Source of the DNA: a phage
NCBI GenBank assembly: GCA_024614665.1
Contig: GCA_024614665.1_4861.1
Direction: 5' to 3' (one strand)
Length of the DNA: 64,000 nt
Below the pieces are notes generated by a model. It worked only from the letters and a program-made list of their open reading frames with translations. It did no database searches and was not told where the DNA came from. This document shows positions 38,997-46,420 of the stretch, one piece after another. Each line of letters begins with the position of its first letter. Position 1 is the first letter of the stretch. The position numbers and the translations under genes were made by a program.

Positions 38997-39043
38997 CAGA
39001 TAGCGCTATGGGGCAAGGAAGCCCCAATCAAAGGAGTTTGGCA

Positions 39044-40246
39044 ATGGCCGAAATCATTTATCAGTACCCGCTCGACCTTACCGGGACATTAACGTCGAAC
39101 GCCGTTACGCGGCGTATTACGTTAGGTTCTGGTAAAGTTAACCGGGCTTTTGCATTTCCTGACGGAGCTTTCTACGCGGATACTTTCCGCTTAGCGGCTG
39201 CGAACAAACCGGGTGTCTACCCGTACAAACGTGGTACAGACTACGAGCTGATTTTTGCACATACTGCATATCAGAAAATGACCAAGAACCGCGAAGTGGT
39301 CATGGGTGTGGTGGTAACTAACTCGGCCATTCCTACAGATATCGAAGTCTCTGCGCAAGTCGTTGGTGGTTTTCAGTCTGCGAACGTCGAAGGCATCCGA
39401 CAAGCGATTGCGTCGTTGAAAATTGAAGACCGCGTGGTGGACTTCAAGGATCTTCGGAACGTACCCGATACGTTCCCGTCCGCACCGACGTATAAAGACC
39501 TTGGCGATATCTACGGTTTTGAGTACATCATTACCGTGCTCGCGGGGATTAAAGATGCGATTAACTCCGGCTCTGCAGTACAGCTGGAAGAAATTAAAGG
39601 TATTCTGGACGGTCTGAAAAACGACTTCCTCGATGCCTTAAATACCCACATCAACGCCGAAGGTAACGTACACAATCTCGACATTCATCAGGTTAATGGC
39701 CTGACGGAGACGGAGATTCGTGCTCTGATTCAAAGTGTACAGACTGCCATTGACGCCACTATCAGAGATATCGGCGACTTAAGAGCAGCAGACACGGCGT
39801 TGGGGCAACGCATCGATGCAGTTGTGGCTTCGTTAGCCGCGTGGAACGACCAGCTTAATGTAGTTGCTCAAAATTACCAGAAAATGTCGTTAGCATTAGC
39901 TAACCTTAATTCTCTGGTGTTGCAATTACAGAAGAAGGTTAATGATCTTCAGTCTGCGCTGAATGAAACAAATCAGCGTGTCACGGATCTTGAGAATCAA
40001 GGCAAAGACTTCCAACAGCAAATTGATAACCTGCAAGGACAAATCAACAGTCTTAAAACTCAGGTTGTAAACAACACCAACGCAATTTCGCAGGCAAACC
40101 AGAATCTGGCGAACCATGCGGCTGCGGATAACCCACACCCGAATTACCTCCATAAACAGTATGGCGGTGTTGTGCAGGCTGCTGTTCACGTCAACAACAA
40201 CCTCACCTCGCGCGACGATGTTCAAGCTGAAGCGGGTACTAAGTAA
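39044..40246 (+). CDS. tail fibre-like protein with C-terminal coiled coil (about 400 aa)
   Basis: ORF track 39008..40246; ATG (MAEIIYQ...) with AAGGAG RBS; shared N-terminal module (GTDYELIFAHTAY); heptad-like Q/N/L-rich segment. Confidence 0.7.
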   Translation: MAEIIYQYPLDLTGTLTSNAVTRRITLGSGKVNRAFAFPDGAFYADTFRLAAANKPGVYPYKRGTDYELIFAHTAYQKMTKNREVVMGVVVTNSAIPTDIEVSAQVVGGFQSANVEGIRQAIASLKIEDRVVDFKDLRNVPDTFPSAPTYKDLGDIYGFEYIITVLAGIKDAINSGSAVQLEEIKGILDGLKNDFLDALNTHINAEGNVHNLDIHQVNGLTETEIRALIQSVQTAIDATIRDIGDLRAADTALGQRIDAVVASLAAWNDQLNVVAQNYQKMSLALANLNSLVLQLQKKVNDLQSALNETNQRVTDLENQGKDFQQQIDNLQGQINSLKTQVVNNTNAISQANQNLANHAAADNPHPNYLHKQYGGVVQAAVHVNNNLTSRDDVQAEAGTK

Positions 40247-40253
40247 CTTGTTT

Positions 40254-40300
40254 ACGAGCCGGACTATGTTTATGGACATAGTCCGCTCGTTCTACTTTTT
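40254..40300 (+). terminator. intrinsic terminator between tail fibre module and Cys-rich peptide genes
   Basis: long imperfect hairpin ACGAGCCGGACTATG...CATAGTCCGCTCGT followed by TCTACTTTTT. Confidence 0.6.
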
Positions 40301-40311
40301 AAGGAAGCGTA

Positions 40312-40704
40312 ATGGCGATATCTATTAAAGACGTCAGAAACCGCGTCCAGATAGTCGAAGCTAACATGGCGACAGGCCCCCGTATCGACGCGCAAGTGGC
40401 CTCTAAAGCCCATAACGCGGCAGACCGATTTGGGGGTTGGACGAAAACACAGCTAGATTGCGGCGGGACATGTTCTTGGACGTGCTCTAACGGTTGCTCG
40501 CATGGCTGTTCGAGCTGTTCAGGAAGCTGTTCTGCTTCTTGTATCGGTAGCTGTTCTTCGACGTGTGGCGGTAACTGTTCTGGTTGCTCTGGTTGTTCTG
40601 GTGGTTGCAGTAGTAGCTGTACCGGTAACTGCACAGGTGGTTGCGGTGGCTCTTGTTCCGCAAACTGCTCCGGGGCCTGCTCCGGCGGCTGTTCAGGTCG
40701 CTAA
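40312..40704 (+). CDS. Cys-rich repeat peptide 1 (130 aa), candidate radical-SAM substrate
   Basis: AAGGAAG RBS; about 50-aa leader-like N-terminus then core with Cys every 4th residue (CSNGCSHGCSSCSGSCSASC...). Confidence 0.7.
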   Translation: MAISIKDVRNRVQIVEANMATGPRIDAQVASKAHNAADRFGGWTKTQLDCGGTCSWTCSNGCSHGCSSCSGSCSASCIGSCSSTCGGNCSGCSGCSGGCSSSCTGNCTGGCGGSCSANCSGACSGGCSGR

Positions 40705-41110
40705 GGGGGATTAAATGGCAATTGGATTAAAAGAACTGAATAACCGATTAAACACGATCGATGCAAACGCTCTAAAGAATACCACGAATGTGCAAAACTA
40801 CATTCGCAATAAAGCTACGAATAACGCCGACTTGTTCGCAGGTCAAGGCCGTTCGCACTATGACTGTGGTGGCACATGCTCTTTTAGTTGCTCGAGTTGT
40901 TCTGGCGGATGTACTGGGTCTGCGACAGGTGGTTGTGGGTCGACTTGTTCGGCAAACTGTGTATCAGGCTGTAGCAGCAGCTGCACGGGCTGTAGCTCTT
41001 CGTGCTCTGGTGGTTGTAGCGGCACGTGCACAGGCAGCTGTTCTGGGGGTTGTGGTAAATCCTGCTCCGCAAACTGCTCAGGTGCGTGCTCTGGTGGTTG
41101 TTCAGGTCCT
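40480..41110 (+). repeat. periodic Cys-codon region encoding the cores of Cys-rich peptides 1 and 2
   Basis: 12-nt (4-codon) periodicity of TGT/TGC; Ser and Gly codons vary synonymously between repeats, so periodicity is at protein level. Confidence 0.6.
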
Positions 41111-41119
41111 AACTCCTAA
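40715..41119 (+). CDS. Cys-rich repeat peptide 2 (134 aa), paralog of peptide 1
   Basis: AAGGGGGA RBS; conserved leader and DCGGTCS core entry; same C-terminal CSANCSGACSGGCSG ending as peptide 1. Confidence 0.7.
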   Translation: MAIGLKELNNRLNTIDANALKNTTNVQNYIRNKATNNADLFAGQGRSHYDCGGTCSFSCSSCSGGCTGSATGGCGSTCSANCVSGCSSSCTGCSSSCSGGCSGTCTGSCSGGCGKSCSANCSGACSGGCSGPNS

Positions 41120-41134
41120 CTGACGGAGGCTTAT

Positions 41135-41341
41135 GTGATCAGTCTCAAGACTATTCGAAACCGTCTCGTTACGGCAGAAGGCTACATTACAACCGCGCAG
41201 GCAAACAACTATATCGCTAACCAGGGCACCGTGTCAACCACGAACAACCTGGCTGGTTTACCGCTTTCTCACTATAACTGTAATGGTGGGTGTAGCTGGT
41301 CCTGCAGCGGAAGCTGTAGCCGTGGAGCGGGGAATCGATAA
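41135..41341 (+). CDS. Cys-rich repeat peptide 3 (68 aa, short paralog)
   Basis: GTG start with GACGGAGG RBS; leader related to peptides 1 and 2; short core NCNGGCSWSCSGSCS. Confidence 0.55.
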   Translation: MISLKTIRNRLVTAEGYITTAQANNYIANQGTVSTTNNLAGLPLSHYNCNGGCSWSCSGSCSRGAGNR

Positions 41342-41363
41342 CAGAAAACGTTCGGAGTATTAA

Positions 41364-42251
41364 ATGAAAAACGATTTGCATCTTGCGTATAAAACCACAT
41401 TCAACCACCCGCTGCATCTATCTTCCCCAGATTCGGTGCGTGCACACCTCGCTGACAAAGTCAGACTGATTGCACAGATTCCTGGTGAGTGGCCAAAGGT
41501 TCGTGGTCGCTTCTTGACCGACAAGAAGAACTACACCGTAGAAAATACGTTTAAGATCCGTGATATGGTTGCAGAGGCCATCGTTATCTTTAACGGCGAT
41601 GGTAACTCTCGCGGCGTGTTGGTTGACGGTAAGTATTTCTTCAGTGAAGGGATTCTGAACAACAGTGTCGATTTAGAACTGATGTTTACACCGTTTGACG
41701 AACTCGAAGCAAAACCGATGGCGCGCCGTTGGTGGAGTCCGGACTATCTGGGCTCGTTCCCTTACTACTTTGTACTGGTACCTGCCGATACGGAAACGTA
41801 TTTCGACACCGAACCGTACATCGATATCGAGGGATATAAAGAACTCGGCATCACCCGTTTAGCGGACATGATGGCGTATAGCTATAAGTTCGTGTGGGAT
41901 AAAAAGCGTTCTGTCTGGTATGCGCTGACTGACGATTTTGAAATCACCAAACGTATTCGTAAGCCGTGGATGCAACACCTGGTTCAAACCCGATATGGGG
42001 ATTACCCGGCGACAGAAGCGGATTTGAGTAAGCTGGTAAGCTTCCTCTTAACGAAGGTGGATTTAACGAAAGAAGAAGCAGAAGCTGTTTCTGAGATTCG
42101 TAGTCGTTCGGTTACGTTGGCCGATTTGAAACGCTTGAACGAAAGACATGCCGACCTGAACAAAATTTTAGCTGCCTATCACGACCCGATGTTACTGGTG
42201 CCTGGCGCTAATGTAGACGAAGATCCTTTATTCGCCATTGATTATATTTAA
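41364..42251 (+). CDS. hypothetical protein (295 aa) within the radical-SAM cluster
   Basis: ORF track; co-directional, tightly packed between precursors and radical-SAM genes. Confidence 0.6.
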   Translation: MKNDLHLAYKTTFNHPLHLSSPDSVRAHLADKVRLIAQIPGEWPKVRGRFLTDKKNYTVENTFKIRDMVAEAIVIFNGDGNSRGVLVDGKYFFSEGILNNSVDLELMFTPFDELEAKPMARRWWSPDYLGSFPYYFVLVPADTETYFDTEPYIDIEGYKELGITRLADMMAYSYKFVWDKKRSVWYALTDDFEITKRIRKPWMQHLVQTRYGDYPATEADLSKLVSFLLTKVDLTKEEAEAVSEIRSRSVTLADLKRLNERHADLNKILAAYHDPMLLVPGANVDEDPLFAIDYI

Positions 42252-42273
42252 AAATATACTGGAGCAACCTGCA

Positions 42274-43188
42274 ATGACAGATCAAGTAGAATCCAGGATC
42301 TCGTCTGAACTGTACGACAAACCGTCAATTCTGTCGGTTGTCGCAACTTCTAAGTGTAACTTAGACTGTAGCTTCTGTGGAGGGGCTTATTACATGGATA
42401 GAGAAGATACTTCTCGTGAGTTTCAACGTGAAGAGATTCTCTCGATTTTAGAGAAGAATCCGGATATCGGTGAAATTCATTGGACGGGCGGTGAGCCGCT
42501 GTTAGCGCAGCGCAAGATTGAAGACTTCGTGAACGAGTTGAAGGAGTCTCATCCGAACCTCCGTCATCACATGTACACCAACGGTTTAAAGATGCGTAAA
42601 TCACATCTGCCGTTGCTGAAACAGTTCGACCTTATCTTTGTGTCCATTGACGGCTACAAGAAGTCGGAACGTCCGTTTATGAACTTTGTAAACGGTGGTA
42701 ATCACGAAGCGCTGGAAGTGCTGTACGAGCTGGACAACTATTACACCTGGGGTGTGATGACGCGTGACCAGTTAGGTGATAAACGCTGGTACGAAGATTT
42801 CATCGAGCTGCACCGAGCAATCTATCATTACCGTCCAGGTGGTATGTCGTTGCTGTTTGATGCGATGATGCCGAAACCGTTATCGCCAGACCACGTCATG
42901 AACTTCATGTACGGGTATTGGAAAATACTCGACAATATCGAACGCCTTAACATGCAGAACGATTCTGAGTGTGGGCTTGCGATCAGTAAAATGTTCGATA
43001 CTGAGTGCAACACGTGCAGTGAAGTGCTGTGGCTTAACGCCGACGGTACGCAGGAGCAAATTCAGAACGCCCCAGAGATATTGGAAGTCGGCTGTAATCG
43101 CCTGGCGCGTTCTATCGGCGTTGATGCGTATAACTACATCAACCGTGTAATTTCTGCTAAGCGTAAACGGGCGGCGAACAATGAGTAA
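42274..43188 (+). CDS. radical SAM enzyme (about 304 aa)
   Basis: CNLDCSFC (CxxxCxxC) near N-terminus; GGEPLL; C-terminal Cys cluster (ECGLA...ECNTCSE...GCN); ATG with CTGGAG RBS (ORF track starts 42238). Confidence 0.75.
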   Translation: MTDQVESRISSELYDKPSILSVVATSKCNLDCSFCGGAYYMDREDTSREFQREEILSILEKNPDIGEIHWTGGEPLLAQRKIEDFVNELKESHPNLRHHMYTNGLKMRKSHLPLLKQFDLIFVSIDGYKKSERPFMNFVNGGNHEALEVLYELDNYYTWGVMTRDQLGDKRWYEDFIELHRAIYHYRPGGMSLLFDAMMPKPLSPDHVMNFMYGYWKILDNIERLNMQNDSECGLAISKMFDTECNTCSEVLWLNADGTQEQIQNAPEILEVGCNRLARSIGVDAYNYINRVISAKRKRAANNE

Positions 43189-44509
43189 CAGCGAACAGCA
43201 AATCCAGTACACACCACGCACGTATCAGGTTGTGACTAACCTGTCATGTAATCTGGACTGCGAATACTGCTACGAGCGTAAATATCCTCGTAACAACAAA
43301 GTAGCAGACGTGATTGATTTTATCCACGCTTGTTTCGAGCGTGATAAAGATATCCCGAACGTTGAGGTCATCATCGATATCATCGGTGGTGAGCCGTTCA
43401 TGCAGCCTAAACTTCTTTTGGCGGCCTTTGAAACCGCAGAGAAGTTATGCGCAGAACACAATCGCCCGTATATGTTCAGTATCTCCACGAACGGTACACT
43501 TCTGGACCGTCCGCTGAACAAAGAAATTATCGAGCGCTGGAAAGACAAACTGTCTATTGGGGTCTCCATCGATGGTTTACCTGAAGTCCATGACAAATAT
43601 CGTATCTTTACCACGACGCGTGAAGGGTCGTACGAAGCTGCGGTACGCGGTTACAATTATCTGAAGAGTGTTGGCATCGCTGAATTAGGCGTAAAGGCGA
43701 CGTTTACGATCGATACATTGCCGCACTATGCCGCCAGCATGAAATCGTTAATTGACATGTCCGGCGGTGGTACCATTTCTGGTAACGTAACGTACGAAGA
43801 TATCCTGCCGCGCCATATGGCGTTGGATATCGCGAACCAGATGATGGACGTGATGGACTACTGGATTGAGAAGGGTCTGCACACCAACCCGCGTAACACG
43901 ATTACACACATCATCCCGGATGGCCTGAACTTTATGGCAACTTGGGACCCGGATTGGCGTGACAAACTCTTACATGACGACTCTGTTCGTCTCGACCCAG
44001 AACGCCTGAAACCGTACTGCGGTACGTTGACGCACATGACCTGTCTCGGCTTTGATCGCAAGATTTACGGTTGTAACCGTTTCATGTCCACGGTAACTTC
44101 CCGTTCTGCTGTAGCAGAACTGGTCGGTCGTGAGTTTGTGAGCCTGGACGGTGGTAAGTTGTTAGAAGAGATTCAAACACAGTACACCAACTACCCAGAA
44201 ACCTGTTTAGGGTGTCCGATGAAACACAGTTGCGGTAGCTGCGCAGCAGCATCGTACGAAAACGGTGAAGGTACACTGGAAGACCGTAAAGCGTATCACG
44301 CCGAGCGTCGTCAGTGTGGTTGGACTACTGCGAAGCTGATGGCGGCGGAATATTGGTATCAGAAAACTGGTACGACCCGCGCATCAGATTTGCATGATAA
44401 ATCCATGTGCTATTGTTCACGTTGTGTACGCCAACGTGCTGAAGCAGAAAAATTACAAAACGGAGCCCAGAATGAAGTCAATACTGATTCACAATTTTAC
44501 GAAGCGTAA
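43181..44509 (+). CDS. radical SAM enzyme with SPASM-like C-terminal domain (442 aa)
   Basis: CNLDCEYC (CxxxCxxC); IGGEPF; C-terminal CLGCPMKHSCGSC resembling the SPASM auxiliary-cluster motif; start overlaps stop of preceding radical-SAM gene by 8 nt. Confidence 0.8.
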   Translation: MSNSEQQIQYTPRTYQVVTNLSCNLDCEYCYERKYPRNNKVADVIDFIHACFERDKDIPNVEVIIDIIGGEPFMQPKLLLAAFETAEKLCAEHNRPYMFSISTNGTLLDRPLNKEIIERWKDKLSIGVSIDGLPEVHDKYRIFTTTREGSYEAAVRGYNYLKSVGIAELGVKATFTIDTLPHYAASMKSLIDMSGGGTISGNVTYEDILPRHMALDIANQMMDVMDYWIEKGLHTNPRNTITHIIPDGLNFMATWDPDWRDKLLHDDSVRLDPERLKPYCGTLTHMTCLGFDRKIYGCNRFMSTVTSRSAVAELVGREFVSLDGGKLLEEIQTQYTNYPETCLGCPMKHSCGSCAAASYENGEGTLEDRKAYHAERRQCGWTTAKLMAAEYWYQKTGTTRASDLHDKSMCYCSRCVRQRAEAEKLQNGAQNEVNTDSQFYEA

Positions 44510-45038
44510 ACTGCACTTGGTCGATCGCTTCCTGCGCAAAAGCAAGCTGTACAATGTGCACGCAATTGTGGCAGGGGAAGACTTCACTGATGAAATCCAA
44601 AGCCTGTTGATTAAATACGGGCTGAATGTGATGATCCCGGTCTACTGCGTTGAGAAAGGACACGAGTCTGTCGCGGAAATCGAAAAGCGCAACCCCGGCT
44701 TTGAGAAGCGACTGCTTGCATACCCACGCCACAAAATCGAACTGCTACGTCACTCTATTGATGAAGCCAGTCCTGAAAGTTTAGTGGCTTTGGGCTTGTC
44801 TTTCCCGCGGATGCGTATTCGTAACTTACGCTCCAATAACCCGGTTGACGCTTATTACACAGAGCGTCAAATCTTCGAAGAACACCTGCTCCCGCAGTTG
44901 GAAGAAGAAGAGCAACACAACATTTCTCTGTTGTGGGCCGGTAACCTCGATCAGGACTTCCAGATGCTGGACTTCGGTTTGTTGTTAGAACTTGGCCTGA
45001 TTGAGGAGGACGAATGTCTGTTACTGACAAAAGCTTAA
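44472..45038 (+). CDS. hypothetical protein (about 188 aa)
   Basis: ORF track 44394..45038; ATG (MKSILIH...) with ACGGAG RBS; overlaps 3' end of SPASM gene. Confidence 0.5.
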   Translation: MKSILIHNFTKRKLHLVDRFLRKSKLYNVHAIVAGEDFTDEIQSLLIKYGLNVMIPVYCVEKGHESVAEIEKRNPGFEKRLLAYPRHKIELLRHSIDEASPESLVALGLSFPRMRIRNLRSNNPVDAYYTERQIFEEHLLPQLEEEEQHNISLLWAGNLDQDFQMLDFGLLLELGLIEEDECLLLTKA

Positions 45039-45685
45039 CGAACGAAGAGATCCGCGCCCGTTATTTCCAGCGTGATTTGCCGATTGATCGTCACGGTAAT
45101 TTCATGGAACGAATCGGTGCGCAGGATCAGGGCCGTACAGGCTTTTGCGCTCTGCTCCATTATCATCTCATCGAAGGGATGTCTGATAAAGAAGCCCTGG
45201 CACGCATGAAGCTGTATGAGATGTCGGAGATTGAAGCTAACTTCACATTGAAACGCACGAAAGAGTTTATTGCTAATGTGCTGGAGATTGACCTCGACGA
45301 AATTCGCGGGAATCTGAAATCTACCGCACGTTACATTTACGAAGACGTGCAGAAGATGCTGTTGGAGCTTGACCACCGCTACGAAGATGAGCGTCATGGT
45401 TATATCGAGTTTGAAGGTAGTCACTTTCAAGCCGATGAATCGTCGCGTACCATCCTCGGTCAATACATTCAGGCAGATACCGCACCAGAATACTGGCTCG
45501 ATACGCTGAATACTAAGCACAGTCCGTTTACAGTAGCCCAATGTAAAGCGTTGCTGGCCGCTATTGTTGCACGTGACCAAGTGTTGCACTCAGCAATGGC
45601 AGATAACAAACGCCATATCCGTGAGTTAGCTGAAAAGCGCGATTACACTGGATTAAAAACATTGTCCGAATCTCTCGGCATTTAA
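45014..45685 (+). CDS. hypothetical protein (223 aa)
   Basis: GAGGAGG RBS; followed by bidirectional terminator. Confidence 0.6.
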   Translation: MSVTDKSLTNEEIRARYFQRDLPIDRHGNFMERIGAQDQGRTGFCALLHYHLIEGMSDKEALARMKLYEMSEIEANFTLKRTKEFIANVLEIDLDEIRGNLKSTARYIYEDVQKMLLELDHRYEDERHGYIEFEGSHFQADESSRTILGQYIQADTAPEYWLDTLNTKHSPFTVAQCKALLAAIVARDQVLHSAMADNKRHIRELAEKRDYTGLKTLSESLGI

Positions 45686-45687
45686 GC

Positions 45688-45745
45688 AAAGAAAATAAAG
45701 GCCCTACCTCCCTTCGGGGAGGTAGGTACCTTATTTTATTTCTTA
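45688..45745. terminator. bidirectional intrinsic terminator closing the radical-SAM cluster
   Basis: A-rich run, hairpin CCTACCTCCC-TTCG-GGGAGGTAGG, T-rich run; between convergent genes ending 45685 and 45766. Confidence 0.7.
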
Positions 45746-45765: not shown

Positions 45766-46293
45766 TTAAACGAATCCGTCCAGTTCACCGTTGGTGGTGC
45801 TCAGGTCAGTTTTAACGATTGGCTGCGTTACAGTATAAACTGCAGGGCTGCCAGGTCGGTATTTAATGTGGCCTGATTTCACCTTAACAGTGATGACTTT
45901 CTCACCACTGCTGCCGTCCACGCGTTTAATGATGAGTTCAGACAATGCAAACGCATCTTCCGTTTTACCGGCGGCAATTAGATCTGCGTTGACAAAAGCA
46001 AGCACTTCTTCATCGGTATCCCATTCTGCCTGGTCAGCGGTAACTGCCTTCTCACCGATGATGTCCGATAAATTGAGGCGGGTATAATGCAGCTCTTTCA
46101 CGCCAGTAAAGTTAGCGGATTCCGCGGTGGCGGTGATGGTGAGATTGGTGTTGCGAGTGTCTCCAGAATCTGCTGGTGAATAGTCAGCAACAGCGCCGAA
46201 TGTAACGTCAGCAGCAGTTAACGGACTAGGCAGTCCGCTGTTTGCAGCATTAAACAGCGCGACGAGTTGGTCTTTTGCAGAGATGACTGCCAT
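45766..46293 (-). CDS. short family-A paralog (175 aa)
   Basis: AAGGAAA RBS; LHYTRLNLSDI motif and C-terminal TNGELDGFV shared with long family-A proteins. Confidence 0.6.
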   Translation of the reverse strand: MAVISAKDQLVALFNAANSGLPSPLTAADVTFGAVADYSPADSGDTRNTNLTITATAESANFTGVKELHYTRLNLSDIIGEKAVTADQAEWDTDEEVLAFVNADLIAAGKTEDAFALSELIIKRVDGSSGEKVITVKVKSGHIKYRPGSPAVYTVTQPIVKTDLSTTNGELDGFV

Positions 46294-46420
46294 GGTTGTT
46301 TCCTTATAGTAGGTTTGTGGTGCATACTAAATCGTTCTAAAAAAAATACATAGTGGGCTTAATATGACAGTAAAGTTGACTGTTAAACGAGAAAATTATT
46401 TACCACTGAAAGGATACCTT

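Follow-up and report, generated by a model that had tools for sequence, protein, structure and literature searches.

Radical S-adenosylmethionine (radical-SAM) peptide maturases are known for producing small natural products that are secreted. One pair of NCBIfam families comes closest to the locus described here: TIGR04115, named 'radical SAM peptide maturase, CXXX-repeat target family', and its target TIGR04114 (tSAM_targ_Cxxx), named 'Cys-rich repeat-containing protein'. The pair was defined by comparative genomics; no experimental characterisation of it was found in the searchable literature, and its family description makes no mention of phage tails. Other described enzymes are also comparable. 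PapB, the ranthipeptide maturase of freyrasin, is a SPASM enzyme whose substrate, with a CX3D motif repeated at period 4, receives several thioethers. CteB is the thioether maturase of SCIFF (TIGR03974). QhpD is a SPASM radical-SAM enzyme that forms Cys thioethers within QhpC, a subunit that stays in a larger assembly and is not a secreted peptide. We analyzed a window of 64,000 nucleotides of phage DNA, in which positions 40312-45685 carry a cassette of eight genes. Like the TIGR04114/TIGR04115 pair, the cassette combines a SPASM radical-SAM enzyme (gp163) with proteins that have a cysteine at every fourth residue (CysA, CysB, and CysC). We interpret it as an enzyme-substrate system in a tail-fibre module that cross-links a fibre-associated protein, probably via thioethers, and does not make a diffusible peptide. 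We give this interpretation about an even chance.

The cassette region matched Salmonella phage SPN3US and its close relatives at 99% identity and corresponds to SPN3US genes 166 to 161. The SPN3US group is the genus Seoulvirus, phiKZ-related jumbo myoviruses of ~240 kb. As the original prediction had described, all eight genes are co-directional on the + strand and are flanked by two hairpin terminators (Table 1). The prediction of two radical-SAM enzymes was also borne out by profile searches. Both gp163 and gp164 passed the Pfam Radical_SAM model PF04055 (cutoff 29.5 bits), with 55.6 and 58.6 bits, respectively. gp163 contains the motifs CNLDCEYC and GGEP, and gp164 contains CNLDCSFC and GGEPLL.

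The radical-SAM motif CX3CX2C of gp163 is formed by C23, C27, and C30, which were invariant or nearly so in the alignment. Its C-terminal cysteines are C280, C288, C298, C342-x2-C345-x5-C351-x2-C354, and C379, and they include a second motif, CLGCPMKHSCGSC. Among 20 sequences of 32-77% identity, C280, C298, C342, C345, C351, C354, and C379 were invariant, and C288 was present in at least 90%. This layout reads as SPASM-type and should accommodate two auxiliary [4Fe-4S] clusters. No match to gp163 was obtained with the Pfam SPASM model PF13186 at E < 0.1. The last spacing of the gp163 motif is CX2C, versus CX3C in the SPASM definition CX2CX5CX3C.

The best NCBIfam match of gp163 was TIGR04115 (3e-36, 125.6 bits), followed by PapB (NF047865; 1e-32, 113.6 bits); the curated cutoffs of 350 and 340 bits, respectively, were not reached. 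Weaker profile matches were HxsB, the SCIFF maturase TIGR03974 (53.9 bits, cutoff 425), QhpD TIGR03906 (3.8e-15), and the anaerobic sulfatase maturase (1e-15). Cys-to-formylglycine oxidation, as performed by the last type, was not favoured, since the match was weaker and no sulfatase motif was present. The sole solved structure matched by the gp163 sequence was CteB (PDB 5WGG, E 3e-10). gp163 begins 22 residues ahead of its CX3CX2C motif, and CteB aligns to it from residue 106 onward, indicating that gp163 is without the N-terminal peptide-recognition domain known as RRE (recognition element of ribosomally synthesized and post-translationally modified peptides, RiPPs). By these profile scores, gp163 appears to be a divergent sister of TIGR04115 and about as close to PapB. 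The original prediction had stated that no described family matches this combination of genes. That part must be withdrawn, as TIGR04114/TIGR04115 describes the pairing, though the window proteins score below both cutoffs. The clade of the window phage also differs from TIGR04115 in having a CSW junction in the Cys-repeat proteins, a second short radical-SAM enzyme, and the partner protein gp165.

CysA, CysB, and CysC are tandem paralogs, as predicted, and their genes lie 1.8-2.9 kb upstream of gp163 on the same strand. All three belong to phrog_6085. They share a short helical N-terminal region, a fibre-type junction (NA..L.G....Y/L.C.G.CSW.CS), and a cysteine at every fourth residue. CysA starts with a helical N-terminal region of ~49 amino acids (aa), continues with the junction NAADRFGG...DCGGTCSWTCS, and ends in a (CX3)n tract. 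Its 21 cysteines are spaced by 4 in 17 of the 20 intervals and by 3 in the other 3. CysB has 20 cysteines, with spacing 4 in 16/19 intervals. CysC has the N-terminal region and junction of its paralogs, but it contains 4 cysteines (CNGGCSWSCSGSCS). The cores of CysA and CysB consist of S, G, C, T, N, and A, with no Asp or Glu. The periodicity of cysteine in CysA and CysB is far beyond chance. On TIGR04114, an 18-residue repeat model, the three proteins stayed just below the cutoff of 20 bits (Table 1); the period-4 spacing of CysA and CysB was itself clear. The Cys tract by itself was predicted to be disordered. An AlphaFold2 model of CysB from a 9-sequence alignment had a confidence (pLDDT) of 42; the N-terminal helices alone were modelled, and the repeat gave no structural conclusion.

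The Cys-rich sequence is open in several frames, and we asked which of them is coding. Compared with six orthologous loci (~55-90% protein identity), substitutions were concentrated at codon position 3 of the Cys frames. Between CysA and its ortholog in locus L002, there were 17, 6, and 57 differences at codon positions 1, 2, and 3, with 52 synonymous and 14 non-synonymous codon changes. Shine-Dalgarno sequences precede all three genes. Every Seoulvirus-like locus keeps CysA, CysB, and CysC each as a separate ortholog, including the short CysC; a lack of conservation in related phages was one of the points that the original prediction had said would argue against a maturase-substrate system. 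CysA, CysB, and CysC are under purifying selection, and the Cys frames are the coding frames. The codon-position pattern, orthologous conservation, Shine-Dalgarno sites, and PHROG membership ruled out that the three are not genes or are read in the wrong frame. An artefact of DNA tandem repeats was ruled out as well. At the DNA level, the Cys tracts use mixed codons, and Tandem Repeats Finder reported weak, short arrays at most; therefore, the periodicity belongs to the protein and not to the DNA.

The three genes are unannotated in the SPN3US records (JN641803, NC_027402), which instead carry an out-of-frame 'gp166' over CysB (window 40788-41123, +). In Escherichia phage EC001 (MN445185), all three Cys open reading frames (ORFs) and a longer gp164 are annotated as hypothetical proteins. 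The exact CysC sequence was found on 230 contigs, always as a 'hypothetical protein', and the exact CysA and CysB sequences were absent from the protein collection searched.

To see whether enzyme and repeat occur together elsewhere, IMG/VR was scanned with the gp163 alignment, and 80 viral loci were returned. A Cys-repeat ORF was counted if it had a long Cys-periodic tract and lay on the same strand within 3.5 kb of the enzyme. Such an ORF was present at 76 of the 80 loci, and none was present in 584 kb of their outer flanks. Together with the family matches, this co-occurrence strongly supports the predicted action of a radical-SAM/SPASM maturase on Cys-rich substrates. On the same co-occurrence and family resemblance, CysA, CysB, and CysC are very probably the substrates of gp163.

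The viral loci fell into two classes. The SPN3US-like jumbo phages form class 1 together with some phages that are more distant; they have in common a gp165 homolog, a second short radical-SAM enzyme, and the junction NA..L.G....Y.C.G.CSW.CS. Class 2 comprises gut-metagenome phages with a ~110-aa N-terminal domain ahead of the repeat and a single SPASM enzyme; their partner proteins of ~195 and ~100 aa are unrelated to the class-1 partners. On TIGR04115, the class-2 enzyme of L023 scored 391 bits and those of L030 and L031 scored 309 and 300 bits; the L030 repeat scored 28.9 bits on TIGR04114. Class-2 members score at or near the curated cutoffs, so phage genomes do contain the catalogued CXXX system itself. 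The window proteins and the class-2 loci share PHROGs 6085 and 1802. Pfam PF27846 is precomputed on class-2-like Cys-repeat proteins (P0168, P0171-P0173, P0176-P0189).

The same data bear on whether the (CX3)n tracts might be unmodified, metallothionein-like binders of metal or Fe-S, with the radical-SAM enzymes acting on another substrate. The extreme density of cysteine, the predicted disorder of the tract alone, the frequent use of metal sites by fibre proteins, and the HxH motifs of some relatives (see below) would all agree with metal binding. It leaves unexplained the near-obligate linkage of repeat and SPASM enzyme at the 76 loci and its absence from the flanks, and likewise the curated pairing of target and maturase, within whose cutoffs a class-2 locus falls. 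We consider metal binding hardly probable at all.

The cultured phages of INPHARED that encode the enzyme family were nearly all SPN3US-like jumbo phages, with Salmonella, Erwinia, Cronobacter, Escherichia, and Proteus as hosts (57 records); ten further enzyme records came from uncultured human-gut phages. A scan of genome contigs returned mostly generic radical-SAM matches. Cys-repeat ORFs were present at 15/80 of these loci; some were long and class-2-like, and some were small peptides. More distant SPASM relatives in bacteria stood beside small peptides (56-75 aa) that are rich in cysteine and in some cases come in tandem copies, at L093 (Clostridium botulinum ATCC 25763), L097, L098, and L117. 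These peptides look like conventional RiPP precursors, showing that the wider enzyme family spans peptide and protein substrates.

The link to tail fibres came from distant relatives. L003 (a Deferribacter abyssi contig) and L004 (a metagenomic contig) encode gp163 relatives with 38-39% identity, and both loci sit immediately 3' of a central fibre gene of the lambda gpJ type (PF24801, PF13550). Their Cys tracts are the C-terminal ends of fibre proteins of 302 or 258 aa, which contain repeated HxH...YYTE motifs and weakly match 'Phage tail repeat like'. The next genes encode a gp165 homolog (HHalign 97%, E 7e-11), a gp164-like enzyme, and a gp163-like enzyme. As the HxH...YYTE fibre repeats precede it, the Cys tract is placed at the distal end of the fibre, where receptor-binding tips are usually found. 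In L018, a 213-kb contig, the Cys tract ends a 568-aa protein located 3' of a baseplate wedge gene. L030 is a gut myophage unrelated to the window phage. In its gene order, a baseplate hub, a baseplate assembly protein, a baseplate wedge, a structural protein, and a tail fibre precede the Cys-repeat protein (phrog_6085); one unknown gene then separates it from the radical-SAM enzyme (phrog_1802), and a second separates that enzyme from a collagen-like tail fibre. In L080 and P0169, the phrog_6085 region forms part of fusions with domains named 'tail protein' or 'tail fiber'. Several unrelated lineages of phages carry the cassette within a tail or baseplate module.

HxH...YYTE repeats recall the metal-stapled trimeric HxH fibres represented by T4 gp37. 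Known fibre tips are stabilized by metal ions and chaperone-assisted folding, and we found no description of enzyme-installed covalent cross-links in HxH-motif fibre tips. A difference is that the Cys proteins of the window are free-standing, without a shaft.

The original prediction had offered two outcomes, a modified peptide product or a cross-linked virion or fibre component. The evidence favours the fibre component: relatives have fibre fusions and sit in gpJ or baseplate modules, and the cassette has no protease, exporter, or RRE. Judged from these fusions and this context, and from the size of the core, that the product belongs to the tail-fibre apparatus and is not diffusible has an even chance or slightly better.

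The opposite outcome would be a diffusible or intracellular RiPP, in which CysA, CysB, and CysC are precursors modified by gp163 and gp164 and the product, set free at lysis or active within the cell, is a toxin, a signal, or an anti-competitor or anti-defence agent with no role in the virion. Several observations speak for it and so weigh against a fibre component. CysA, CysB, and CysC are small (68-134 aa), come as three paralogs, and have a conserved, leader-like N-terminus followed by a core. The nearest characterized relatives of gp163 are RiPP maturases, and bacterial enzymes such as those of Clostridium botulinum L093, L097, and L098 adjoin the 56-75-aa Cys-rich peptides. Further points against our interpretation are that gp163 is below the cutoff of every curated family searched and that the cores of CysA and CysB have none of the acidic acceptors of the PapB substrate, so that the chemistry may differ. 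None of the SPN3US genes identified as essential so far is from the cassette (PMC5105663), and the virion data discussed below give no direct support. On the other side, a RiPP gene cluster in the general sense also has a leader-removing protease and/or an exporter and releases a small product, and searches of Pfam, NCBIfam, and PHROG found no leader protease, exporter, or immunity gene among the eight cassette proteins, and gp163 has no RRE. The repeat of relatives is covalently within fibre proteins of 258-568 aa or fused to tail domains, and the cassette is consistently inside the tail or baseplate modules of several unrelated lineages. A core of ~80 aa with ~20 cysteines is also far above the known size of RiPP cores. 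We regard a diffusible RiPP as unlikely.

For the cross-linking of a fibre component, a mechanism can be proposed by analogy with PapB, CteB, and QhpD. The radical-SAM cluster of gp163 would abstract a hydrogen from an acceptor carbon, and the auxiliary cluster would present the Cys thiolate. The disordered Gly/Ser/Cys tract would then be locked by many intramolecular thioethers into a rigid, reduction-resistant ladder. Phages assemble in the reducing cytoplasm, in which thioethers, unlike disulfides, can form. By the same analogy, we lean slightly towards multiple Cys-derived thioether cross-links with an acceptor other than Asp or Glu as the modification. gp164 and gp165 might serve as clade-specific helpers, for a second modification, for substrate presentation, or for both; they may present the substrate, as gp163 has no fused peptide-recognition domain. 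The mature product would be a component or the tip of the tail-fibre or baseplate apparatus, docked by its N-terminal helices, perhaps on gp167 to gp170. The three SPN3US-like paralogs could form a heterotrimeric tip. More broadly, and only tentatively, jumbo myoviruses, lambda-like siphoviruses, and gut myophages may all build part of the fibre tip from a (CX3)n tract that a radical-SAM enzyme converts into a thioether ladder.

The described maturases differ from the window system in several respects. Residues 22-357 of gp163 align to positions 12-319 of the 330 in the PapB profile. Because the window cores contain no Asp or Glu, both the acceptor residue and the acceptor carbon must differ from those of PapB. 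The window substrates are 3-4 times longer and are found in a phage structural context, versus a bacterial RiPP gene cluster for PapB. For CteB, the auxiliary-cluster motif CDSCWAKFYCSGGC aligns to the second motif of gp163, with CX2CX5CX2C in gp163 versus CX2CX5CX3C in CteB. CteB carries an N-terminal RRE of ~100 residues that gp163 does not have, and SCIFF precursors are ~45 aa long with six cysteines. QhpD is distant in sequence, and QhpC has a few Cys-Asp/Glu links versus a periodic tract of 20 cysteines, with no phage context.

Some fibres have C-terminal intramolecular chaperones. A modified Cys tract at a fibre end might similarly be a transient element, a scaffold for the folding or trimerization of fibres that is then removed or left behind, so that mature virions do not contain it. 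For a disposable part, two or three dedicated Fe-S enzymes would be a heavy cost. No protease or autocleavage motif was identified, and the window repeat proteins are encoded by separate small genes, unfused to a fibre. A transient element is, in our view, very unlikely.

The published virion list of SPN3US contains 86 proteins, among which gp160, gp167, and gp168 to gp173 are present and gp161 to gp166 are absent (PMC5694885 Suppl. Table 1). The absence of gp161, gp162, gp163, gp164, and gp165 fits non-structural assembly factors encoded beside structural genes. The absence of CysA, CysB, and CysC is uninformative, because their ORFs were missing from the annotation that was searched. The SPN3US annotation omits the three genes and truncates the Fe-S motif of gp164; hence, published proteomic searches could not have seen the substrates. 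The ~80-residue Cys cores have almost no tryptic sites. Tryptic peptides diagnostic of CysA are VQIVEANMATGPR, IDAQVASK, and FGGWTK, and those of CysB are LNTIDANALK, NTTNVQNYIR, and ATNNADLFAGQGR; VQIVEANMATGPR, LNTIDANALK, and ATNNADLFAGQGR are among the N-terminal ones. SPN3US has an amber-mutant genetic system and deep proteomics, which makes the idea directly testable in this phage.

The enzyme class and the CXXX-repeat pairing are already catalogued. What appears to be undescribed is their systematic embedding in tail-fibre modules, together with the fusions to fibres, the accessory set of class 1 (gp165 and the second enzyme), and the presence of unannotated substrates in a model phage. 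A literature search, which did not cover subscription literature, found no papers on the cassette, on maturases of CXXX repeats, or on tail-fibre radical-SAM enzymes. The tail-fibre link points to a use other than natural-product synthesis: the enzymes could cross-link a virion protein covalently before it leaves the reducing cytoplasm. We know of no enzymatically cross-linked virion or receptor-binding protein, and this would be the first such case if true. The orphan 'CXXX-repeat RiPP' family TIGR04114/TIGR04115 would then be reassigned to phage tail maturation, and a post-translational modification of a new kind would enter phage structural biology. There may also be consequences for the stability of particles and for host recognition among the Salmonella, Erwinia, and Cronobacter phages that are therapy candidates.

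The remaining cassette proteins were analyzed with the same profiles. In gp164, the CX3CX2C motif is formed by C28, C32, and C35, which were invariant or nearly so among the aligned sequences. Its ATG at 42274 has a Shine-Dalgarno sequence and is the start used in the EC001 annotation; the reference start of SPN3US gp164 falls 3' of the CNLDCSFC Fe-S motif (window 42238-42430, +). The C-terminal Cys set of gp164 is small, with a CxxC pair and C274, which was invariant in the alignment, and may be read as twitch-like. Beyond the radical-SAM core, no Pfam or NCBIfam profile gave a specific family match to gp164. A third radical-SAM gene is present in some class-1 relatives (L005/L006 1868-2830, L004 7087-7992, L018 6571-7989), so the number of enzymes varies from one in class 2 to three.

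gp165 is a candidate substrate-presenting factor or fibre chaperone. HHalign showed no relationship between gp165 and the ~195-aa protein at the equivalent place in class-2 loci, and gp165 was likewise unrelated to a 224-aa protein of L018. It was weakly similar to a 267-aa protein of L020 (HHalign E 8e-4). The cassette at L020 (6883-10074 on a 279-kb viral contig) is a variant that lacks a long repeat. There, a 97-aa protein with CESCAMGC at its end is followed by the 267-aa gp165-like protein, the SPASM enzyme, and the short radical-SAM enzyme, with the enzyme order swapped. gp162 is kept with the cassette in jumbo-phage relatives only. gp161 weakly matched a PHROG 'tail protein' (phrog_2837, 1e-3) and is possibly an assembly factor.

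Table 1. Coordinates of the cassette genes and adjoining features in the window.
Feature	Position	Strand	Matches and remarks
gp167, 412 aa, coiled-coil virion protein	39008-40246	+	phrog_2163; coiled-coil matches; directly upstream of cassette
Upstream hairpin with T-rich tail, intrinsic-terminator-like	40254-40300	+	closes gp167 fibre gene, precedes cassette
CysA, 130 aa, putative substrate	40312-40704	+	phrog_6085 9e-40; TIGR04114 18.5 bits
CysB, 134 aa, CysA paralog, putative substrate	40715-41119	+	phrog_6085 3e-41; TIGR04114 17.1 bits
CysC, 68 aa, GTG start, paralog, putative substrate	41135-41341	+	phrog_6085 3e-24; TIGR04114 13.7 bits
gp165, 295 aa, conserved partner	41364-42251	+	
gp164, 304 aa, short radical-SAM enzyme	42274-43188 (TTG at 42238 also open)	+	PF04055 58.6 bits
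gp163, 442 aa, putative Cys-repeat maturase	43181-44509	+	Pfam Radical_SAM, TIGR04115, phrog_1802
gp162, 188 aa from ATG 44472 (longer ORF from 44394)	44472-45038	+	phrog_7988 aligns from residue 27 of longer ORF
gp161, 223 aa, DUF4376	45014-45685	+	PF14301 36.3 bits (cutoff 25)
Bidirectional hairpin terminator downstream	45703-45726	both	10 pairs, 7 G-C; T-runs on both strands; closes cassette and convergent gp160

The cassette had been placed between tail-fibre and lysis genes. The first half of this placement stood: the genes directly upstream encode the virion fibre/baseplate proteins gp168 (1742 aa) and gp167. gp168 is named a tail protein in SPN3US, and gp168 and gp169/gp170 are listed as baseplate/tail-fibre candidates (PMC5105663, PMC5694885). 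gp167 is a fairly abundant virion protein of SPN3US that is not assigned to the head (SC/M 1.90 by mass spectrometry; PMC5694885), and it is a candidate attachment partner for the cassette product. The block from gp167 to gp160 is syntenic across Seoulvirus-like phages, with gp163 as its most conserved member (63-83% identity). The label of lysis genes downstream is plausible from sequence matches and weakly supported. On the - strand at 47038-48204, gp158 matched Peptidase_M15_3 below threshold (16.8 bits), and gp157 is a DUF1353 protein (63.8 bits). In the relative L005, a DUF1353 gene adjoins a GH108 endolysin.

Both predicted terminators were recovered. The downstream hairpin is strong. 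A simple terminator scan missed the upstream one at 40254-40300, which was recovered by folding: the hairpin at ~40254-40290, followed by TTCTACTTTTT, had a minimum free energy of -24.1 kcal/mol (z = -4.5), and 0/200 shuffles were as stable. The AAGGAAG located 3' of this hairpin is the ribosome-binding site of CysA. A scan for sigma-70 promoters gave no enrichment, with 9 sites found versus 12 expected.

gp160 (175 aa, DUF7941, phrog_4862; 45766-46293, -) is convergent with the cassette. It is among the most abundant head proteins of SPN3US, with >300 copies (PMC5694885). For paralog family B, the main text of that paper has gp161 and its Supplementary Table 1 has gp160, which is probably a typographical error. 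A second strong bidirectional hairpin terminator is located at 46915-46945 (13 pairs, 8 G-C). It is preceded by a 182-aa ORF (46364-46912) with a lipoprotein-like N-terminus and no family match.

At L083 (3684-7616), proteins of 1031 and 279 aa stand beside a related radical-SAM enzyme and contain CxxC repeats rich in D, E, Q, and T; by their composition, these repeats may be a separate substrate type. Contigs of ~240 kb with the cassette sit in many isolate assemblies of Salmonella enterica and E. coli, with the gp163 cluster on 598 contigs and CysC on the 230 mentioned above. As cassette contigs occur in isolate assemblies, SPN3US-like phages may often travel with isolates, in a carrier state or as contamination.

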